From a virus: DNA of 41,840 nucleotides. Of this stretch, positions 18,356 to 41,652 are shown one piece after another. The notes beneath the pieces were generated by a model. That model ran no database searches, had not been told where the DNA came from, and saw nothing but the letters and a program-made list of their open reading frames with translations. Positions within the stretch are counted from its first letter, which is position 1; the number at the start of each line of letters is the position of its first letter. Position numbers and translations under genes: made by a program. Location of the stretch: the UHGV virus genome UHGV-0211239, one strand, 5' to 3'.

Positions 18356-18598
18356 GTCTTACCCCCAATAAGGGGATTTGCTCTATTTAATTAGGAATAA
18401 GGTCGATTACTGATAGAACAAATCCAGGCTACTGTGTTTAGTAATCAGATTTGTTCGTGACCGATATGCACGGGCAAAACGGCATGAGGTTGTTAGCGCA
18501 ACCTCCTGCCACCCGCTTTCACGAAGGTCATGTGTAGAAGGCCGCAGCGTAACTATCACTGATGAATTCAGGATAGCCAGTGGCTACGGCTCAGTTAT

Positions 18599-18673
18599 GG
18601 TGCTGGTTAACGGACTTGAACCGCTACACATTCGCTTACAAGGCGACTGCTCTACCATTGGAGCTAAACCAGC
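18599..18673 (-). tRNA. tRNA-Thr-like (anticodon UGU)
   Basis: Manual cloverleaf on minus strand: 7/7 acceptor stem, 4-bp D stem, anticodon loop CUUGUAA, T stem with loop UUCAAGU, discriminator A then CC; one non-WC pair at 27-43 and C at position 14. Confidence 0.55.
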
Positions 18674-18678
18674 ATATT

Positions 18679-18753
18679 TGGCGGGACAGCGTGGACTCGA
18701 ACCACGATAAGAAGGTTAACAGCCTTCCGTAATGACCTTTATACGACTGACCC
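18679..18753 (-). tRNA. tRNA-Asn-like (anticodon GUU), possibly degenerate
   Basis: Manual cloverleaf: anticodon stem 5/5 with loop CUGUUAA, T arm CGUGG-UUCGAGU-CCACG, encoded CCA; acceptor stem has one U-U mismatch, D stem 3 bp. Confidence 0.45.
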
Positions 18754-25963: not shown

Positions 25964-26191
25964 TTATGCAGCCAGAAGGTTCTTTTTGCTTATTTCAAGC
26001 ATTTCGCTTGCTTGATATTTGCCACCAGAAATCTCTTCGATTTTTGATGCGTATTTCGTTTTCCCAAAAAACTCAGTCTTAGGGAGGAAGCCGTTTTTGA
26101 GCCACTTATAGACAGCCCTTTCGCTAACTCCACAAGCCTTCGCAACTTCAGGGATGCCGACACCTTTAATCGGCTCATCAAGATTTTGCAT
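25964..26191 (-). CDS. cro: Cro-like repressor
   Basis: Start re-set to MQNLDEPIKGVGIPEVAKACGVSERAVYKWLKNG (HTH), SD aagga; divergent from the CI-like gene. Confidence 0.75.
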   Translation of the reverse strand: MQNLDEPIKGVGIPEVAKACGVSERAVYKWLKNGFLPKTEFFGKTKYASKIEEISGGKYQASEMLEISKKNLLAA

Positions 26192-26194
26192 AGG

Positions 26195-26269
26195 GATATC
26201 CTTTTTCGTACTTTCAGTACGCATTATGATTGAACTGAAAGTTTTTGCAAGTGCTTTAGTATCGTACTC
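26195..26269. promoter_or_regulatory. OR operators with divergent PR/PRM
   Basis: Palindrome cgtactttcagtacg plus repeated half-sites (actgaaagt, tcgtact); minus-strand TTGCAA-17-ATAATG as PR; repressor ATG directly at 26270 suggests a leaderless PRM transcript. Confidence 0.6.
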
Positions 26270-26977: not shown

Positions 26978-27020
26978 CTTCATCGTCACATAGCTGATAG
27001 CCAGTGGCCTGAAGAGACGT

Positions 27021-27049
27021 TTGGGTGATGAAACCACTTTTATCTACAA
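27021..27049 (+). promoter_or_regulatory. Putative sigma70 promoter for the two-gene operon
   Basis: TTGGGT-17 bp-TACAAT between repressor stop and the operon start. Confidence 0.35.
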
Positions 27050-27067
27050 TTTACAGGGCGGTAAACA

Positions 27068-27625
27068 TTGGCAAAAATAGATGATTATCAGCCAAGCCAA
27101 GTAGAAGTTGATAAAGTACTTTATTGTAAAAAAATAGTTAACTTTTCTGGCGTTAAATGGAAACAGAAACCAAGTCGCTCTGATATGTGGCTACAAACTC
27201 ATATCATCCCCTTGGATGAGGATTGTATACCTATACAAGGGCTAAAGTTTGAACTGAAATGGAAACCAGATCAGGATTCAGAACCTGATGACCCGATTTC
27301 TTACCCTAAAATAAATATTATTGCTTTCTATCATAACAAGAGGGTTTTCGCGGTAGATACCTATCACTTTGACAAACACACGAATAGTTACAAGGTCGAT
27401 CATCCGAAGTACCAAGATATCATTTACGGTGCTCACTACCATGTATACTATGAAGAAGCTGGATACTATAGTGATAGAATAGCGTTTCCAATCGAAGATG
27501 ACATAAACCCAGATGACCTGGTAGGGTATTGGAATTACTTCTGTAAACATCTGAACATAACTTACTCTGGGAGAATACCTTTACCACTTGAAGATGAGTC
27601 GGGGCAAATGGGGTTTGGAATATGA
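27068..27625 (+). CDS. Hypothetical protein A of candidate two-gene system at rexAB position
   Basis: 185 aa, TTG start with SD agggcgg; AT-rich codon usage; His/Tyr-rich segment HYHVYYEEAGYY; no recognised domain. Confidence 0.55.
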   Translation: MAKIDDYQPSQVEVDKVLYCKKIVNFSGVKWKQKPSRSDMWLQTHIIPLDEDCIPIQGLKFELKWKPDQDSEPDDPISYPKINIIAFYHNKRVFAVDTYHFDKHTNSYKVDHPKYQDIIYGAHYHVYYEEAGYYSDRIAFPIEDDINPDDLVGYWNYFCKHLNITYSGRIPLPLEDESGQMGFGI

Positions 27626-28374
27626 TGTGCTCAACAGTGATCTCACAACTAGGTTTCGAATGCCATCCAATAGGCAAGACCTTGAGAATTATCAGTCCAT
27701 TCACTTACTGTGATGATGGAGAGCATGTCGGTGCCTTTATCCGTGAAGTCAATGGTAGGTATTTAGTTAGTGATAGATGCGATGCCTTAATGAATATGGA
27801 GGCAAGAGGGATCTCGCTTACCAAAAAACGACTTGATGAGATACGACAATTACTGCTTAAAGAAGGCGCAGAGCTCAATGATCGAGGAGAAATCATTGCT
27901 TGGGCAACAGAAAAGGATGTCGGTGCGATTACATCGAACATAATTAGAGCTGGTATACTCGCATCAACTTTGTCGTTAGACTGGTATCAGCCAGTTCAAG
28001 CTGAAAAGTTTGAAAGTATGGTTATTGATTATCTATATCACACAGAGCTTAGAGACGCACTTTCTCTTCGTGAAAACGTATATGGCTTGAGTGGACATCA
28101 AATTACCGTCCCTGTAACAATAAAAACCGACATACCTAAATACGTTTTTACATCAAGCGTGAAACACGGAGGAAGCTGGAATAGTGCTTACTCATTGCTT
28201 GGGAAACTAATTGATCTTAAAGCATCAAGTGAGGAGTATAACAACAGATTTGTTGTTATAGACAGCGAAGCAATTGGTGACCAAATGCAACAACTCTCCT
28301 TACTCTTCCATGAATCAAGCCAAGTTCTACCATTCTCCAAAAGAGAGACTTGGGTTAAGAGACTTGCAGCATAA
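27622..28374 (+). CDS. Hypothetical protein B of candidate two-gene system
   Basis: 250 aa; ATG overlaps stop of gene A (ATGA); AT-rich; followed by a terminator; no recognised domain. Confidence 0.6.
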   Translation: MMCSTVISQLGFECHPIGKTLRIISPFTYCDDGEHVGAFIREVNGRYLVSDRCDALMNMEARGISLTKKRLDEIRQLLLKEGAELNDRGEIIAWATEKDVGAITSNIIRAGILASTLSLDWYQPVQAEKFESMVIDYLYHTELRDALSLRENVYGLSGHQITVPVTIKTDIPKYVFTSSVKHGGSWNSAYSLLGKLIDLKASSEEYNNRFVVIDSEAIGDQMQQLSLLFHESSQVLPFSKRETWVKRLAA

Positions 28375-28379
28375 TACAA

Positions 28380-28405
28380 CCCGGCCTCAGCGCCGGGTTT
28401 TCTTT
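28380..28405 (+). terminator. Intrinsic terminator
   Basis: cccggc-ctcagc-gccggg followed by ttttcttt, six bases after gene B stop. Confidence 0.7.
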
Positions 28406-28569
28406 GCCTCTCGCCCAAAAAAAACACATAACCAATTGTATTTATTGATGTAACTCGCTAAACCATACAGTTCTGATCCCTGCCGCATAACCTTCATCAG
28501 CCACATTTTCAAAAATAAATTTCCTTATATATCAGAATCATACTTCGTAGAGTTAATAAATCACCAAAA

Positions 28570-28615
28570 TTCGTACCAATAGTTCTTGATAATGTCGAAC
28601 TATTGGTTCATTATT
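28570..28615. promoter_or_regulatory. Putative OL/PL
   Basis: Inverted repeat accaatagttc / gaactattggt sharing half-sites (tcgtac, tYgaact) with the OR region; overlaps TTGATA-17-CATTAT. Confidence 0.4.
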
Positions 28616-28683: not shown

Positions 28684-28698
28684 GCGCTGACAAAGCGC
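28684..28698 (+). promoter_or_regulatory. nutL boxB hairpin (P22 type)
   Basis: gcgcTGACAAAgcgc upstream of the N-like gene; identical to the P22 boxB as recalled. Confidence 0.6.
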
Positions 28699-28863: not shown

Positions 28864-29247
28864 ATGACACGCAGAACTCAGTTCAAAGGCAATTCACGTT
28901 CTCGTCGTCGTGAGCGTTTAAAGGCAAAGGCATTAGCTAACGGCGTACTGGCCCGCGAAGAAGCAATAAGTTCAGAAGTATTACACCGCCCTACTCTAAG
29001 CAGAGCGCAGATTCAGGCTAAAGGTACTCACGAAACGCCTGAGCGCATAGAAGACGCTAAGCCAATTAAGTTCATTGCACAGGACGTGATCTGGCAACAG
29101 AAAGAATACAGACGCAATCTGGAGCGAGCGGCCATTGTGTACGCGAATGAGTTTGGACATAAGCAACCAGAAACTGGTGTATGTCTTCCAAACGTAGCCA
29201 TTTACGCGGCAGGATACCGGAAATCAAAACAACTGACAGCGAGGTAA
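28864..29247 (+). CDS. N-like transcription antiterminator (P22 gene 24 analogue)
   Basis: 127 aa; N-terminal arginine-rich motif RRTQFKGNSRSRRRERLKAKA; first gene after the PL/nutL region. Confidence 0.7.
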   Translation: MTRRTQFKGNSRSRRRERLKAKALANGVLAREEAISSEVLHRPTLSRAQIQAKGTHETPERIEDAKPIKFIAQDVIWQQKEYRRNLERAAIVYANEFGHKQPETGVCLPNVAIYAAGYRKSKQLTAR

Positions 29248-29537: not shown

Positions 29538-30008
29538 ATGACAAAATCATGGAGCGTACCTTTTCCTGAATCAGAAACTGAACATGATGGAATGCCTGTT
29601 TTCTGGAGATTCCAAGCGACAGTTGAAGAAGATGGAATCAAAATATTCGCACTTCAATATATAGCTTTTCATCAGACAGAGCATTATGCATGGTTGGTTC
29701 CTGCGCATTGGATTGTTGATTTTAAACCAGCACCAAATCAATGGTTACGGGAATGGAAACAAAGGATAAATAGATATGCAATTAAGAAAGTAGCAAAAAA
29801 TGCAGAAAGATCTTTTGCATTCCCAACGAAGAAACTTGCCATTGAGAGTTTATTGCGCCGGAAGAAATACCATTTAATGAGAATCAAACAAGATTTGGCT
29901 GTTGTATCAACTCTTGTTGATGGGATGAAGAATATTGATACATCAACACCAGATATTGAATATAACTTTGGACACAACCAAGAAACAGAAAATTGGGTAT
30001 TCTACTAG
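29538..30008 (+). CDS. Hypothetical early protein (AT-rich moron at esc/sieB position)
   Basis: 156-aa ORF; no TM segments or recognised motif. Confidence 0.5.
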   Translation: MTKSWSVPFPESETEHDGMPVFWRFQATVEEDGIKIFALQYIAFHQTEHYAWLVPAHWIVDFKPAPNQWLREWKQRINRYAIKKVAKNAERSFAFPTKKLAIESLLRRKKYHLMRIKQDLAVVSTLVDGMKNIDTSTPDIEYNFGHNQETENWVFY

Positions 30009-35476: not shown

Positions 35477-35824
35477 GTGGAAGAAGAAATCTTCACTCGT
35501 GAAGAAGCTGCGTCGTATCTGAAGGTAGACAAAGGCACTATCACGCAGTGGATACGAAGTGGACGACTTCAGGCCGCAAAGATAAATCCAGATAAACCTA
35601 AAAGCCCATATCGCATTTGCAAGTCAGACTGCATTGCGGCGCTTAAGTCTGTGAGACACAATAGCGCGGTGAATGCGGTTGATGTGCAGGAGGTTAAAGC
35701 ATGTCAATCAAACTACGCGGTGGCACGTGGCACTGCGATTTCGTCGCGCCAGATGGATCAAGAGTTAGACGCTCTCTTGAAACATCGGACAAAAGGCAAG
35801 CGCAAGAACTTCACGATCGTCTGA
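35477..35824 (+). CDS. xis: Excisionase (MerR-like HTH)
   Basis: TREEAASYLKVDKGTITQWIRSGRL HTH near N-terminus; immediately upstream of and overlapping int. Confidence 0.65.
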   Translation: MEEEIFTREEAASYLKVDKGTITQWIRSGRLQAAKINPDKPKSPYRICKSDCIAALKSVRHNSAVNAVDVQEVKACQSNYAVARGTAISSRQMDQELDALLKHRTKGKRKNFTIV

Positions 35825-36861
35825 AAGCAGAAGCGTGGAGAGTAAAAAATCTCGGGGAATCGCCGAAAAAGCTATTCAAGGAAGCCTGCATACGGTGGCT
35901 GCGTGAGAAATCGGATAAGAAGTCCATTGATGATGACAAGAGCATTATATCGTTCTGGATGTTGCACTTCAGAGAAACCATTCTCTCTGACATAACAGCA
36001 GAAAAAATAATGGAGGCGGTAGACGGGATGGAAAACCGCCGCCATCGCCTGAACTGGGAGATGAGCCGGGACAGGTGTTTGCGGCTTGGCAAGCCAGTGC
36101 CGGAGTATAAACCAAAGCTGGCAAGCAAAGGAACGAAGACGAGGCATCTGGCAATACTTCGCGCCATTCTCAATATGGCTGTTGAATGGGGATGGATTGA
36201 CAGGGCGCCAAAAATATCAACACCACGCGTTAAGAATGGACGCATTAGATGGCTTACAGAAGAAGAATCAAAGCGCCTGTTTGCAGAAATAGCTCCTCAT
36301 TTCTTCCCTGTTGTCATGTTTGCAATCACGACAGGCCTTCGCCGCTCCAACGTTACAGACCTTGAGTGGTCACAGGTCGATCTGGATAAGAAAATGGCAT
36401 GGATGCACCCTGATGAAACAAAAGCTGGCAATGCGATCGGAGTTCCTCTTAACGAAACCGCATGCCAGATATTAAGAAAACAGCAGGGTCTCCATAAGAG
36501 ATGGGTATTTGTCCACACCAAACCTGCCTACCGAAGCGACGGAACAAAAACAGCAGCGGTAAGGAAGATGAGAACCGACAGCAACAAGGCATGGAAGGGA
36601 GCGTTAAAGCGGGCAGGCATTAGCAACTTCCGATTCCATGACTTGAGGCATACTTGGGCAAGCTGGCTGGTTCAGTCCGGTGTCTCTCTTCTTGCACTTA
36701 AAGAGATGGGAGGATGGGAAACTCTCGAAATGGTTCAAAGATACGCTCACCTTTCAGCCGGGCATCTCACCGAGCACGCGAGCAAAATCGATGCGATTAT
36801 AAGTCGCAATGGCACAAATACGGCACAAGAGGAGAACGTGGTTTACTTAAATGTGAGGTAA
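35701..36861 (+). CDS. int: Tyrosine integrase (P22 Int-like)
   Basis: 386 aa; catalytic-domain motifs (HDLRHTWASWLVQSGV, MGGWETLEMVQRYAHL); attP adjacent. Confidence 0.9.
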   Translation: MSIKLRGGTWHCDFVAPDGSRVRRSLETSDKRQAQELHDRLKAEAWRVKNLGESPKKLFKEACIRWLREKSDKKSIDDDKSIISFWMLHFRETILSDITAEKIMEAVDGMENRRHRLNWEMSRDRCLRLGKPVPEYKPKLASKGTKTRHLAILRAILNMAVEWGWIDRAPKISTPRVKNGRIRWLTEEESKRLFAEIAPHFFPVVMFAITTGLRRSNVTDLEWSQVDLDKKMAWMHPDETKAGNAIGVPLNETACQILRKQQGLHKRWVFVHTKPAYRSDGTKTAAVRKMRTDSNKAWKGALKRAGISNFRFHDLRHTWASWLVQSGVSLLALKEMGGWETLEMVQRYAHLSAGHLTEHASKIDAIISRNGTNTAQEENVVYLNVR

Positions 36862-37250: not shown

Positions 37251-37922
37251 ATGGTGATTGATGCAATGTTAAGCGTTCAGATGACTCCACAAGCAAAAGT
37301 TAGCTTCGAGGAGCAATGTTTTTTTCATGCTTCAGGTCTTGTTGTTGCCCCAATAAATGTTGGAGCATTCTCCTACTTTGGCGCTAATTGTATGCTCGGC
37401 GGCTTTACGATGGGTAGATTTTGTTCAGTTGCTCCAGGAGTAAAAATTGGCCTTGGCGAGCATGAAACTGGGTATTTTTCTACGCATCCTTTTTTCTTTG
37501 GCTCAAAAAATGGTTTTAAAATCCCTGATGGTATAGGAATGCAACGCGACCTCTCTCAACAGAAGCATGGTATACCAAGAATTGGTCATGACGTATGGAT
37601 AGGTGCAAATGCGGTTATCAGGCGAGGTATAACTATTGGTACTGGCGCTGTTATTGCTGCTGGCGCTATTGTCACCAAAAATGTCGAGCCATATTCAATC
37701 GTAGGTGGCGTTTCTGCAAAACACCTAGGGTACAGATTTGAGGAATCAATCATCAAAGAGTTACTGGATAGCCAATGGTGGGAATATGATTTAAGCTCAT
37801 TTATTGGGATTGATACAAGGACACCGACGACTTTTTTAGAGCAGTTTAATGCTGTAAAAGATAAAAAGAAGGCATCTTATAAGAGATTTACAATTCTTCC
37901 ATCCGGTGAAATTGTTGAATAG
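37251..37922 (+). CDS. Hexapeptide-repeat (left-handed beta-helix) acetyltransferase; candidate surface-polysaccharide O-acetylase
   Basis: 223 aa; repeats [31 protein letters not shown]; AT-rich; convergent with tailspike at the P22 seroconversion locus. Confidence 0.75.
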
Positions 37923-37941: not shown

Positions 37942-40308
37942 TTAAATAAACATAAGAATAAACATCAGAAGTTCCTCGTATCTGATACCATACTGATAAC
38001 CAGCAGGTTTAATAATAACCTGCCTTCCTGTGTAATATTCCTCGTCGTACCACTCTCCTGTTTCATTGTTTTTAACACTCCTAATTAATACCTCTGGAGC
38101 ATAAATATCATCCCATTCATCATAACACCAGAACGCATAGTTATTAGGGTCAAGACCGTATTTTCTGAGAATATTACCTACAGTTTGTGCACCAACACCG
38201 AAATGAATCCGAGCGCCATCACTCTTGATCTTTACTGCATCTTTAAATTTAAACCTCCAGATATTTTTCTTTATTTCAAGCGCAGCAAGACGCTCTGATT
38301 CTGTTGTTTTCTCGTCAGCCTCAATACGCAATTTCAGCTCTTCATTCGACGTGTTGATACTGCCAGTACCAGCGTATACCTGTGACCATCGAAATGCTGA
38401 TGTTCCGTTTGAGTTAACATTATCAACAGTTGGTTTTATAAGGCCAGAAAAATGAGTTTCAGGTGATGTATGAAGAAGATATCCGCCAGAATCGTTTTTT
38501 GTGCGTAATTCTATAGAGTCTACAATTATTCCACTGCGACGAATAATGATAGCGTTATTACCTTGTGCACCATTGTCTTTCTGAGTGGATAGTGTGTATC
38601 CGGTACGAGTATCTATCCTCCATCTTTTGGTATCTTCTGATGCTTCCTGATTATAAAGATAAATAGAGTTATCAGTGTAATTATTTTTGCCATCAATATT
38701 TGTAAGTGTAAATTTGTTATTTACTTTGTCATCATTGACCATGAAATTGGCAAGAGTGTAGAGAGGAGATGCAGTATACTGGCTGCAATTAAAACCACGT
38801 GCGTTTTGTATGTTAAGTAATGTTGTGACATTAGCATTAATGCTAATATTGGAAAAGTTTGTCGCCTGATTTGCTCCATGTATTGATGATGTTACTCCTA
38901 TCTGAGCTCCAATATCCAATGTACCAAAACTTACATTAATGAAGTTGTTTGCATCGCCACCATCTATAATTATTCCTTTTTTAGTCGTCGTATAACCTGA
39001 TGCACTGCTAATCTCCAATCCATTAATGGTGCACACTCTTGGTCTGATGAGTCTAATTCCTACCCATTCATTTCCGTGGTCATATCCTCCTCCTGCTCTA
39101 TGTATGGCTAGTCCATTAGCAATCAAAAGAAATCTGTTATCAAGATTAATAGGGTGAAGCTGGCTATTAATGATAACGTTTGTCCATATAGACTCACCAT
39201 ACGCATAGCGATTTGATTCGAACACTCTATCCTGAGCATCATAAACACCGTTTAGGGATCTAGCAACATCGACATTGGTAAGATTGAAATATGTCTTCTG
39301 CTTAATTTCAAAAAAATTGGCAACGTTATGCGTTGTGATATCACTCACACGCATGGATAAAATACCTTCTTCTGGAGCGGTGCGAATGAATCCATCAAGG
39401 AACTGTTCATTATAACTTTTGGCTATCTGATAACATCCAACAGCATCAATGCGTTCGATTGTGAACTGCCAACTATCACCACAGTTAAAAGACCATTCCC
39501 AACCGTACTTCTGTGCGAATTCATCAGAATCAATATTTGCAGTCTCAGAACAGAAAGATAAAAATCTAAATGTTGGTTTTGGCCTTAGATGATTAAGCCC
39601 GACACCTCTTGGGGTATATATGGCATTAGCTCCATTCCCGCCTTTGCTTTTAATTGTAAGGTGACTTAAACCAAATTCAACATCATGCTTAGTTGGTGCA
39701 GCGAAAACAAATCCATCTTTTGGTGATGTGGTATTATCAAACACAATAACTGTTTTACCCTGTCCATCGCCACACATATTCACTGGTGGTATATTAACTG
39801 GTCCAATTAAATTATATGTTCCAGTTGGAATATATAACTTTCCACCATCTCCAAGAGCATTTGCTGCTGCAATAAATGCCACCGTATCATCGTTAACACC
39901 GTCACCTTTCGCCCCATAATGCTGTGGCGTAATTAACAGCATACGGTCAGAAAAAATCTCTTCCCTAAGTTGATCAGGATCGTATTTTAATACATTTGGA
40001 AAATAAAACTGCTGAGTGCCATATGCATCATATACAGCCATAGAATGGCCTTGCACAGTTACGAATTTGGCAATCTGCCCGTTATATACCGGATATCCAG
40101 CAGCGTTAATGATGATTGGTTGCGAAACAGGAACATGAGAGCCGTCTTCGTTCTCTACATAAACCTGAATCTGGTTTTCAGGATTTACCGGGTCAGTATC
40201 AATTTTACCGATATAAATTTTGCCATTGGCTACGGATTTAAAAGAACGCGCCATAGTGAAGAGTTGCGAAGGCATACTCACTACAACATTGGCTGTAATG
40301 TCTGTCAT
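37942..40308 (-). CDS. Tailspike: P22-type head-binding N-domain, pectate-lyase-like beta-helix, C-terminal intramolecular chaperone (S74-like)
   Basis: 788 aa; N-terminal about 110 aa matches P22 gp9 ([11 protein letters not shown]...VLKYDPDQ); [13 protein letters not shown] motif; C-terminal SNEELK...[10 protein letters not shown] resembles self-cleaving chaperone domains. Confidence 0.8.
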
Positions 40309-40486: not shown

Positions 40487-41365
40487 TCAGTAGTTATGTA
40501 CTGAAGGAGGTAATTCTTTATTCTTAAGTCTCATCCATGCGGAAAGATTCGTTGGTCCGTCTGGCTCATTAATATCAACATCTCGTGTATGGTTGATTAA
40601 AACATCTCTCGCCATTCCGATAACATACGAGAACTCATGACCGTAGTCGTAGCATCTGCCGGAATAATTCGATTGAATTTGTTTTAATGCCGGATACAGT
40701 TCGCGGAATAATGCCTGTGAGCGGTTGGCATAATCCCATAACCATACAAGACTGTTTGCTTCTTTTGCAGAAAGCTCGTTGGTTTTCTTCTCTTGCTTGC
40801 CGATGAACTCACCTTCAAGCACTACCCTGTGGATGTACTCTACGGCCAGCGGGATTTGTTCAATTGAAAGTTCATCAATGCTGTCAATACCAAAACGCTG
40901 ATGAACCATATTGTATGCATCGTCATAGCGAAGTCCTTTCTTTCCTACCAGCATGTTTACTGCATCGCGTAGCGGTGTTCTTTCCTCAACAGTGGTTTTC
41001 TTTCCTTTTACATACTCGTCATGTTTGCGAATTGAAGGCAGAACTTCTGCTGTTACCCACTTGCGGAATTTGTGCGGGACTGAACCTTTATTGACTGCAT
41101 CGCGGCAGCGCAGAACCAATGTATACATACCTGATTCGCTCACAATGCTTATATTCTGCTCACCACCAAGGGTGTAACTTAAAGTTACTCCCTTTTCATC
41201 GTCATCAAGTGCAGTAAGCGCCTTGCGTGAGTTAGTCAAAGCTAAAGCATCACAAACATCTTTAGCTACAAACCACGGCTCGCCGCACTTGTTAATGACG
41301 CGAATTTCACTGTCGCCAAATTTGAAGATGGTGAAATCGTTTTGTGCCTTTGCTATACTTTTCAT
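40487..41365 (-). CDS. ant: Antirepressor (Bro-N domain)
   Basis: 292 aa; N-terminal [30 protein letters not shown] is Bro-N-like; downstream of arc. Confidence 0.7.
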
Positions 41366-41427
41366 GTCAATATTTCCTAATCCGATTTGTTGATACCGAA
41401 GCCCTGACTGTTACCGCAGTTGGGGCT

Positions 41428-41652
41428 TCAACTTTTCACTTCTTTAAAGTGCCTACCTTCTACAGTTGCTCTGAGATAAAAATTCTTATCTTTACCGTTT
41501 AGTGCTTCCCAAGCATCAACAATGCACTTATTACAGATGTGGACTTCTCGATAACCAATAGCTTTCCTGTCAATATTAGTGAACATAACAGTTTCTTTAT
41601 CTGTCAATGTGGATGCATGACAGAAGTCGCAATCTATATAAGATACCTTCAT
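41428..41652 (-). CDS. Small CxxC...CxxC zinc-ribbon protein between arc and ant
   Basis: 74 aa; Cys at 8, 11, 40, 43; ATG overlaps arc stop; SD gagaggggat. Confidence 0.5.
   Translation of the reverse strand: MKVSYIDCDFCHASTLTDKETVMFTNIDRKAIGYREVHICNKCIVDAWEALNGKDKNFYLRATVEGRHFKEVKS

Follow-up and report, generated by a model that had tools for sequence, protein, structure and literature searches.

The two-gene unit after the cI repressor

The subject of this analysis is a pair of open reading frames (ORFs), ORF-A and ORF-B, in the virus genome UHGV-0211239, a stretch of 41,840 nucleotides (nt) that is called the window throughout. By its P22-type features, namely the sar antisense RNA, the antirepressor-like gene and the tailspike (Table 1), the window phage is a podovirus like P22 whose early region is lambdoid. 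The pair lies in its immunity region, directly after the cI repressor gene. A-B is a mobile, translationally coupled two-gene cassette in the cI-N slot of a P22-like/lambdoid E. coli prophage. An earlier interpretation made from the letters alone (the sequence-only reading) had placed the two ORFs in a slot equivalent to that of rexAB in phage lambda, and had proposed them as a horizontally acquired candidate defense system with a promoter of its own. The slot, the acquisition and the candidate defense role are supported by the analysis described here; the independent promoter is the exception.

The features of the region are listed in Table 1. The + strand of the window corresponds in gene order to the leftward direction of lambda. 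The ORF list and the sequence agree on two overlapping ORFs of 185 and 250 amino acids (aa), as first described, and their ends share four nucleotides (ATGA, 27622-27625). The TTG start of ORF-A is supported, as the residues Met-Ala-Lys at the N-terminus do not vary among 18 homologues. The proposed position between the repressor and PL/nutL is borne out by the domains of CI, a PL-like site, a boxB-like hairpin and the N_peptide match of the antiterminator. A stretch 3' of the PL-like promoter, CATCAGCAGGACGCACT, is common to lambda, where the alignment puts it between rexB and N; we take this conserved stretch to be the start of the PL transcript. The clean terminator claimed for the unit was also recovered, with an 8-bp stem containing six GC pairs followed by a T tract, and a folding energy of -14.6 kcal/mol (z = -2.7).

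An exchangeable cassette at the rexAB position

The limits of the cassette, 27030-28376, were set from BLAST breakpoints. The 32 bp that follow cI (26998-27029), and the terminator with its downstream sequence (28377-28448), are homologous to the flanks of lambda rexAB, so that the equivalence to the rexAB slot is a literal one. Lambda shares only these two linkers with the window and carries rexA and rexB between them. The lambda counterpart of the left linker encodes the last residues of the repressor, SQWPEETFG, and the stop codon, and a 33-nt terminator stretch is 100% identical to the rexB end in the lambda prophage of strain EMG2. The segment 26998-27029 marks the left recombination joint of the cargo slot. 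This 32-bp relic of a lambda-type cI 3' end sits just past the stop codon of the window phage's own, different cI.

Comparison with related phages shows the slot empty, filled with other cargo, or filled with the same cargo behind another repressor. In the Stx1 phage AU5Stx1, the 3' 454 bp of cI are ∼96% identical up to 27029 and homology resumes at 28377; the 337 bp in between hold no large gene, and the slot is empty. The cI of PhiR12 is also the same (98.75% identity, as far as 26999); its slot is filled by one 341-aa gene, and homology returns at 28380. PhiR57_1, ev207 and ev017 differ in their cI but share the A-B cassette with the window (97.6-98.8% identity), with homology from 26999. 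Modular horizontal acquisition, as the sequence-only reading had suggested, follows from these sharp breakpoints against AU5Stx1, PhiR12, PhiR57_1 and ev207. The AT-rich, atypical composition that was noted at first is also found, the cassette having a GC content of 39.3% against 46.2% for the window, at the 5th percentile of segments of the same size. Of 5426 complete E. coli genomes, 239 carry the pair, as do 7 of 50,697 phage records at a coverage of at least 80%.

Mosaicism of the cI-N region has been described before: this hotspot carries rexAB in lambda, and bstA in BTP1, a P22-like prophage (PMC8585504). The cargo of PhiR12_1 (L019:2659-3684) is a 341-aa protein annotated as 'T2SS GspM containing', for which no PADLOC match was found. 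The gene LF82_153 in Perceval, a prophage of E. coli LF82, has the same size as this 341-aa gene of PhiR12, and is followed by a highly expressed transmembrane protein, LF82_152 (PMC9928086 supplement). The 32-bp and ∼70-bp linkers held in common with lambda provide a concrete picture of cargo swapping in the slot, and both could anchor a census of slot cargo.

Transcription of the cassette

The promoter first proposed for the pair, TTGGGT-17-TACAAT, did not hold up. Both hexamers are present, at 27021-27026 and 27045-27050, with a spacer of 18 nt. The site matches 8 of 12 consensus positions, which is below the scan threshold of 9 of 12, and hence went unreported by the promoter scan. Eight promoter-like sites were found in the region against 7.6 ± 2.6 in shuffled sequences, so there is no excess. 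The -35 hexamer falls within the linker 26998-27029, the remnant of a lambda-type cI 3' end, and is therefore what remains of a former repressor gene rather than a dedicated signal. Furthermore, the gap between the repressor gene and A shrinks to 8, 29 or 45 nt in several homologous loci; an intergenic promoter therefore cannot be a conserved feature, and an independent promoter in the gap was ruled out as the main driver. TTGGGT-18-TACAAT is a weak site, and most of the transcription probably starts elsewhere.

In the simplest model, which is the more likely one, A and B would be co-transcribed with cI by read-through from the repressor promoter. The terminator scan predicted no terminator in the gap between cI and A, and the folding of the gap is unremarkable (z = -1.3). 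Both rexAB and bstA are thought to use the promoter of the repressor (PMC8585504). In Perceval, the cargo gene LF82_153 has read counts like those of cI, and kil and gam, which lie farther on among the early left genes, are nearly silent in the lysogen (PMC9928086 supplement). The A-B pair itself is absent from both E. coli LF82 prophages, the slot of Perceval holding other cargo and that of Gally being empty. The Perceval read counts support expression of the slot, not of the A-B genes themselves.

Conservation and genomic context of the family

The sequence search with ORF-B returned 47 matches in Enterobacterales and Aeromonas, with identities between 48% and 99%, and that with ORF-A returned 21. 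An exhaustive profile search for A yielded only 20 family members among 1.84 billion representatives, and these 20 showed no informative fusions or annotations. A genome-locus search with a closer B alignment gave six loci only. Between genera, synonymous sites are saturated (proportion of synonymous differences, pS, 0.71-0.89), non-synonymous differences (pN) amount to 0.14-0.45, and dN/dS is ∼0.06-0.18 where computable. ORF-A and ORF-B are real genes under purifying selection and not chance ORFs. Non-synonymous change in A runs ∼1.2-1.7 times faster than in B in every genome pair (L012-L025 comparison), with dN of 0.23 against 0.15, or 0.69 against 0.40, as examples. This fits A as the component that faces phage diversity.

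The pairing of the two genes is constant. An A-type gene lies immediately 5' of a DUF1828 B-type gene on the same strand, their ends overlapping or abutting, in all 23 loci checked, and the adjacency holds for A homologues at 22-42% identity. Upstream on the same strand, either adjacent to A or with one small gene between, a CI-type repressor gene is present in 15 of the 18 distinct contexts, which come from Escherichia, Klebsiella, Yersinia, Providencia, Xenorhabdus, Pantoea, Izhakiella, Aeromonas and metagenomes. These repressors combine a helix-turn-helix (HTH) domain with Peptidase_S24, except for one in Klebsiella that has the HTH only. The gene between repressor and A encodes DUF3024 in three loci and is an 82-aa ORF in one. 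The DUF3024 gene (113 aa, 3.4e-27) was observed in an Izhakiella and two Providencia prophages (L012:5044-5385, L014:5053-5394 and L015:5052-5393), and could represent a third, optional component or independent cargo.

Three exceptions lie in other surroundings. The distant pair L020 adjoins a type I restriction enzyme and a PDC-M01/PtuA-like (Septu-like) ATPase pair, the distant pair L003 adjoins a retron-type reverse transcriptase-Toprim gene (2.7e-29) and a resolvase, and the pair of L008/L009 is carried on a D5-primase element. From these exceptions it follows that the family alternates between prophage repressor operons and defense islands.

Database placement

Protein B matches the PADLOC model PDC-M24B at 4.4e-10 over its full length (residues 2-249 against positions 4-254 of 256), and 14 of 14 members of the B family match the same model (best 1.8e-15). 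Protein A matches PDC-M24A with an E-value of 4.6e-4, a weak and partial match of residues 104-163 to positions 79-134 of 148 (56 positions). In the A family, 7 of 26 members match PDLC04536, the best represented of the three PDC-M24A models matched (best 1.2e-4); the A protein of L020 has no PDC-M24A match at 1e-3. PADLOC had been named as a check on the defense proposal, and it thus gives a full-length candidate match for B and a weak one for A.

The sequence-only reading had found no nameable motif in either protein. This was wrong for ORF-B, which contains the Pfam domain DUF1828 at residues 26-110, with 35.5 bits against a gathering threshold of 22 (1.3e-08). Protein A matches DUF6978 in its C-terminal half only, with 21.9 bits and an E-value of 2.3e-4, below the gathering threshold of 29.6; DUF6978 is matched by 13 of 26 members of the A family at E < 0.01. 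These matches suggest that A is distantly related to DUF6978 rather than a member. The two proteins also fall into PHROG families 2017 and 1960, at 1e-66 and 6e-107, which have no assigned function. An NCBIfam scan of A and B gave nothing meaningful, and a search of PDB sequences with both family profiles returned only a repeat-protein artefact and noise. Other known defense families were considered, and PADLOC v2.0.0 returned PDC-M24 only for either protein, with the limit that the BstA model in that version was unconfirmed by a positive control.

PDC-M24 is one of 145 'guilt-by-embedding' candidates, recorded as CAS_00098 and FAM_00129>>FAM_00065 (Payne et al., bioRxiv 10.1101/2024.01.29.577857). 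A-B is best explained as a divergent, repressor-linked branch of the PDC-M24 family, in which a DUF6978-like protein is followed by a DUF1828 protein.

Predicted structures of A and B

Protein A was modeled by AlphaFold2 with a mean predicted local distance difference test (pLDDT) of 87.7 and a predicted template modeling score (pTM) of 0.83. The invariant residues of the family are K22, W31, R92, D97, H104, N106, G121, H123, H125, W155, F158, P173 and Q180. An H-x-N and an H-x-H motif lie on neighboring predicted strands, where D97, H104, N106, H123 and H125 cluster. In the model, this His/Asp cluster is likely a metal site. A Foldseek search against viral models found only one uncharacterised siphovirus protein. 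The last ∼10 residues, from 176, are predicted to be disordered, with 178-185 below a pLDDT of 50, and the C-terminal stretch 168-185 is conserved despite this. A tail that is disordered yet conserved is typical of a docking peptide.

The model of protein B (pLDDT 84.0) has two domains. The N-terminal DUF1828 domain is predicted to adopt a fold like that of type III secretion system (T3SS) chaperones and YbjN. The C-terminal domain is predicted to contain a restriction-endonuclease PD-(D/E)xK core of alpha-beta-beta-beta-alpha-beta topology. The canonical D...(D/E)xK motif is absent across the wide B family. The positions expected for it, as set by secondary structure only, are occupied by H159/Q160 and F176-T177-S178, while K181 and K173 vary in the family. 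Several canonical active sites were considered for the conserved residues of the pair, namely PD-(D/E)xK, the SxK...E variant (NgoMIV/Cfr10I type), HNH/His-Me finger, metallophosphoesterase, cupin and 2H phosphoesterase; all were rejected on spacing, conservation or fold. The endonuclease-fold domain, as modeled, may be non-canonical or a purely binding module. The invariant residues of B are C3, C14, D32, D51, G89-E90, W121, F130, S157-G158-(H159), T177, G194 and D198. C3 and C14 (window 27628-27630 and 27661-27663) are invariant throughout the B family, down to 29% identity, while the other cysteines vary; they could be a metal, redox or interface site.

Acidic, soluble and predicted to be cytoplasmic, A and B both lack a signal peptide. 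Hydropathy over 19 residues peaks at 0.34 in A and at 1.19 in B, and neither has a transmembrane (TM) segment.

Proposed function and alternative explanations

Our preferred reading, held with moderate confidence, is that A-B is a lysogen-expressed anti-phage defense against superinfecting phages. The earlier proposal of a candidate defense system gains weight from the PDC-M24B match, from the distant pairs beside a type I restriction enzyme with a PtuA-like pair and beside a retron reverse transcriptase, and from the position in a published cargo hotspot. Beyond this, it is possible, though on balance we doubt it, that A-B is a functional anti-phage system of an undescribed mechanistic type, in which an orphan-fold metalloprotein, A, is held or switched by a chaperone-like/endonuclease-fold fusion, B, and which serves as a plug-in of the repressor operon across prophages of Enterobacterales and Aeromonas. 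More speculatively, the LexA/CI-type repressors that almost always accompany the pair could be functionally coupled to it, for example through self-immunity on induction, and would then offer more than a convenient promoter.

A specific clamp-and-release model can be outlined, which we regard as rather unlikely in its details. A and B, both soluble, would form a cytoplasmic complex in which the chaperone-like N-terminal domain of B would bind a peptide, either the conserved disordered C-terminal tail of A or a phage protein. Infection would alter this interaction and release a hydrolytic activity against nucleic acid, which might come from the predicted His/Asp metal center of A, from the non-canonical endonuclease-fold domain of B, or from both. 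The incoming phage would be blocked, possibly at the cost of the cell (abortive infection).

Several observations weigh against the defense reading. In the literature searched, no phenotype or functional study was found of the A-B pair, PDC-M24, DUF1828, DUF6978, the PhiR phages or ev207/ev017, and two other PADLOC PDC candidates gave no defense in one native host (PMC12409345). The matches of A to PDC-M24A and DUF6978 are weak and partial, with E-values of ∼1e-4 and below Pfam gathering, and for A no solved structural relative was found that would name an activity. Nuclease activity of B is doubtful because the conserved D...(D/E)xK is missing. Lastly, no other defense system adjoins the window copy, which sits in a prophage immunity region without a restriction-modification (RM) neighbor, an RM context being seen for the distant pair L020.

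The alternative that survives best, though it is unlikely, is an addiction module resembling a toxin-antitoxin (TA) pair, in which one protein is toxic and the other neutralizes it, so that the prophage or mobile element is maintained and any anti-phage effect is secondary. Two small overlapping genes imply a fixed stoichiometry, the peptide-binding, chaperone-like fold of B could sequester A, and the pair is found on several kinds of mobile element, for example beside a resolvase and on a D5-primase element. However, scans of Pfam, NCBIfam and PADLOC placed neither protein in a known family of toxins or antitoxins; no toxin or antitoxin domain, and no DNA-binding domain of type II antitoxins, was found in A or B with these three resources. 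The conserved site right after the repressor also points to expression in the lysogen, not to plasmid-style stabilization. TA function and abortive-infection defense are in any case not mutually exclusive.

Less probable still is that A-B modulates the lysis-lysogeny switch or the induction of its own prophage, as has been reported for RexA. The link to a CI-type repressor in most contexts would suit such a role, and genes to the left of cI have been named as possible switch or exclusion factors (PMC12315714). Some family members, however, have no repressor nearby and lie instead by the type I restriction enzyme, the Septu-like pair or the retron, and no similarity to RexA was found. Moreover, the same cassette occurs with at least two cI alleles and the same cI occurs without it, and the cassette is therefore not tied to one immunity specificity.

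We give as little credence to a host-adaptive moron outside phage conflict, acting in stress, metal handling or virulence and using the strong lysogenic promoter. Prophage slots do hold many non-defense morons (PMC9928086), and the predicted metal-binding His cluster of A would be compatible with one. Against this, A and B are cytoplasmic proteins with neither signal peptide nor TM segment, the non-prophage contexts of the family are defense islands, and B matches a guilt-by-embedding defense candidate. Ordinary phage housekeeping genes or non-functional ORFs are highly improbable: PHROG 2017 and 1960 are indeed phage families without an assigned function, but close relatives with the same cI lack both genes, so A-B is dispensable for the phage life cycle, and purifying selection, cross-genus conservation and confident folds exclude non-coding or decaying ORFs.

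If A-B does defend lysogens, the database candidate PDC-M24 would become a validated system, the classic rexAB/bstA slot would have a third unrelated occupant with a known role, and a function would be available for DUF1828 and the DUF6978-like fold. The cassette is present in ∼4% of complete E. coli genomes, including relatives of Stx phages, and in several enterobacterial genera; given this wide spread, it could affect phage-therapy host range and prophage competition.

Other features of the window phage

Just 3' of N, a 156-aa ORF (29538-30008, + strand) has the lowest GC content of those checked, 36.3%, and no Pfam or PADLOC match; it could be a second accessory or moron gene of the early left operon. 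The hexapeptide acyltransferase gene next to the integrase may be a lysogenic-conversion (surface-modification) gene. Two adjacent phage-borne transfer RNA (tRNA) genes, tRNA-Thr(TGT) and tRNA-Asn(GTT), were observed at 18598-18753 on the - strand.

Table 1. Positions of the immunity-region genes and signals and of other phage features in the window
Feature	Position	Strand	Basis
cro-like ORF, divergent from cI	25964-26224	- (opposite)	ORF list
cI repressor gene, 235 aa	26270-26977	+	Pfam Peptidase_S24 4.4e-16, HTH_3 1.2e-05
Left cassette linker	26998-27029	+	30/32 bases match the end of lambda cI
ORF-A, 185 aa, TTG start	27068-27625	+	ORF list
ORF-B, 250 aa	27622-28374	+	ORF list
Right cassette linker	28377-28448	+	BLAST breakpoints, alignment; conserved with lambda, AU5Stx1 and PhiR12
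Intrinsic terminator closing the cI-A-B unit	28378-28399	+	Terminator scan, folding
PL-like promoter TTGATA-17-CATTAT	28586-28614	+	Promoter scan
boxB-like hairpin GCGCTGACAAAGCGC of nutL	28684-28698	+	Read from the sequence; aligns with lambda boxB region
N antiterminator gene	28864-29247	+	Pfam N_peptide 2.8e-15
Integrase	35701-36861		
Hexapeptide acyltransferase gene	37251-37922		Next to integrase
Tailspike with P22 head-binding domain	37942-40308		
P22 antirepressor-like gene	40487-41365		Bro-N + P22_AR_C
sar antisense RNA	41367-41433		Rfam 72.7 bits

Comparison with known systems

At the level of folds, the endonuclease-like domain of B resembles the PD-(D/E)xK superfamily (Can2, PspGI, NgoMIV and Tox-REase-5, among others), with the difference that the invariant residues S157-G158-(H159), T177 and D198 stand in place of the catalytic ones. 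The N-terminal domain of B resembles the T3SS class I chaperones and YbjN ('TY-chaperone'), whereas in B it is joined to a restriction-endonuclease fold, the partner protein has an orphan fold, and no secretion system is involved.

With RexAB, the cassette has in common the slot after cI, homologous terminator and linkers, the form of a two-gene accessory cassette and the same operon logic. The proteins themselves differ. BLASTP of A and B against lambda RexA gave E-values of at least 11, and B against lambda RexB gave an E-value of 0.34 over 24 residues. The PADLOC models of RexA and RexB matched the lambda proteins at 9e-110 and 9e-61, as a positive control, and matched neither window protein; homology to RexAB was ruled out on these two lines of evidence. 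RexB is a membrane protein (literature cited in PMC8585504), while A and B are soluble. A membrane depolarization like that of RexAB is excluded, because neither A nor B is a membrane protein.

BstA of prophage BTP1 is an abortive-infection defense encoded directly 3' of a P22-like repressor gene, with its own terminator and presumably the promoter of the repressor (PMC8585504). It shares with A-B the P22-like host phage and the position after the repressor. The BstA system has one protein and a cognate DNA element for self-immunity, aba (PMC8585504), whereas A-B consists of two proteins; no such element was found for A-B, and no search was aimed at one.

PDC-M24 is among the closest known systems, and A-B shares with it the two-gene cassette, the A-then-B order on the same strand and the full-length match of B to the hidden Markov model; the weak match of A is confined to the half of the protein that carries the His motifs. 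PDC-M24 was defined from contexts such as type I restriction enzymes, and the distant pair L020 shares a context of this kind. The A-B branch lies mostly right after prophage repressors, in contrast to the embedding of PDC-M24 in RM, BREX or DISARM. The slot and the idea of defense are already known, and the protein family had already been flagged by PADLOC as a candidate; within it, the copy described here is divergent, linked to a repressor and paired with a partner of orphan fold.

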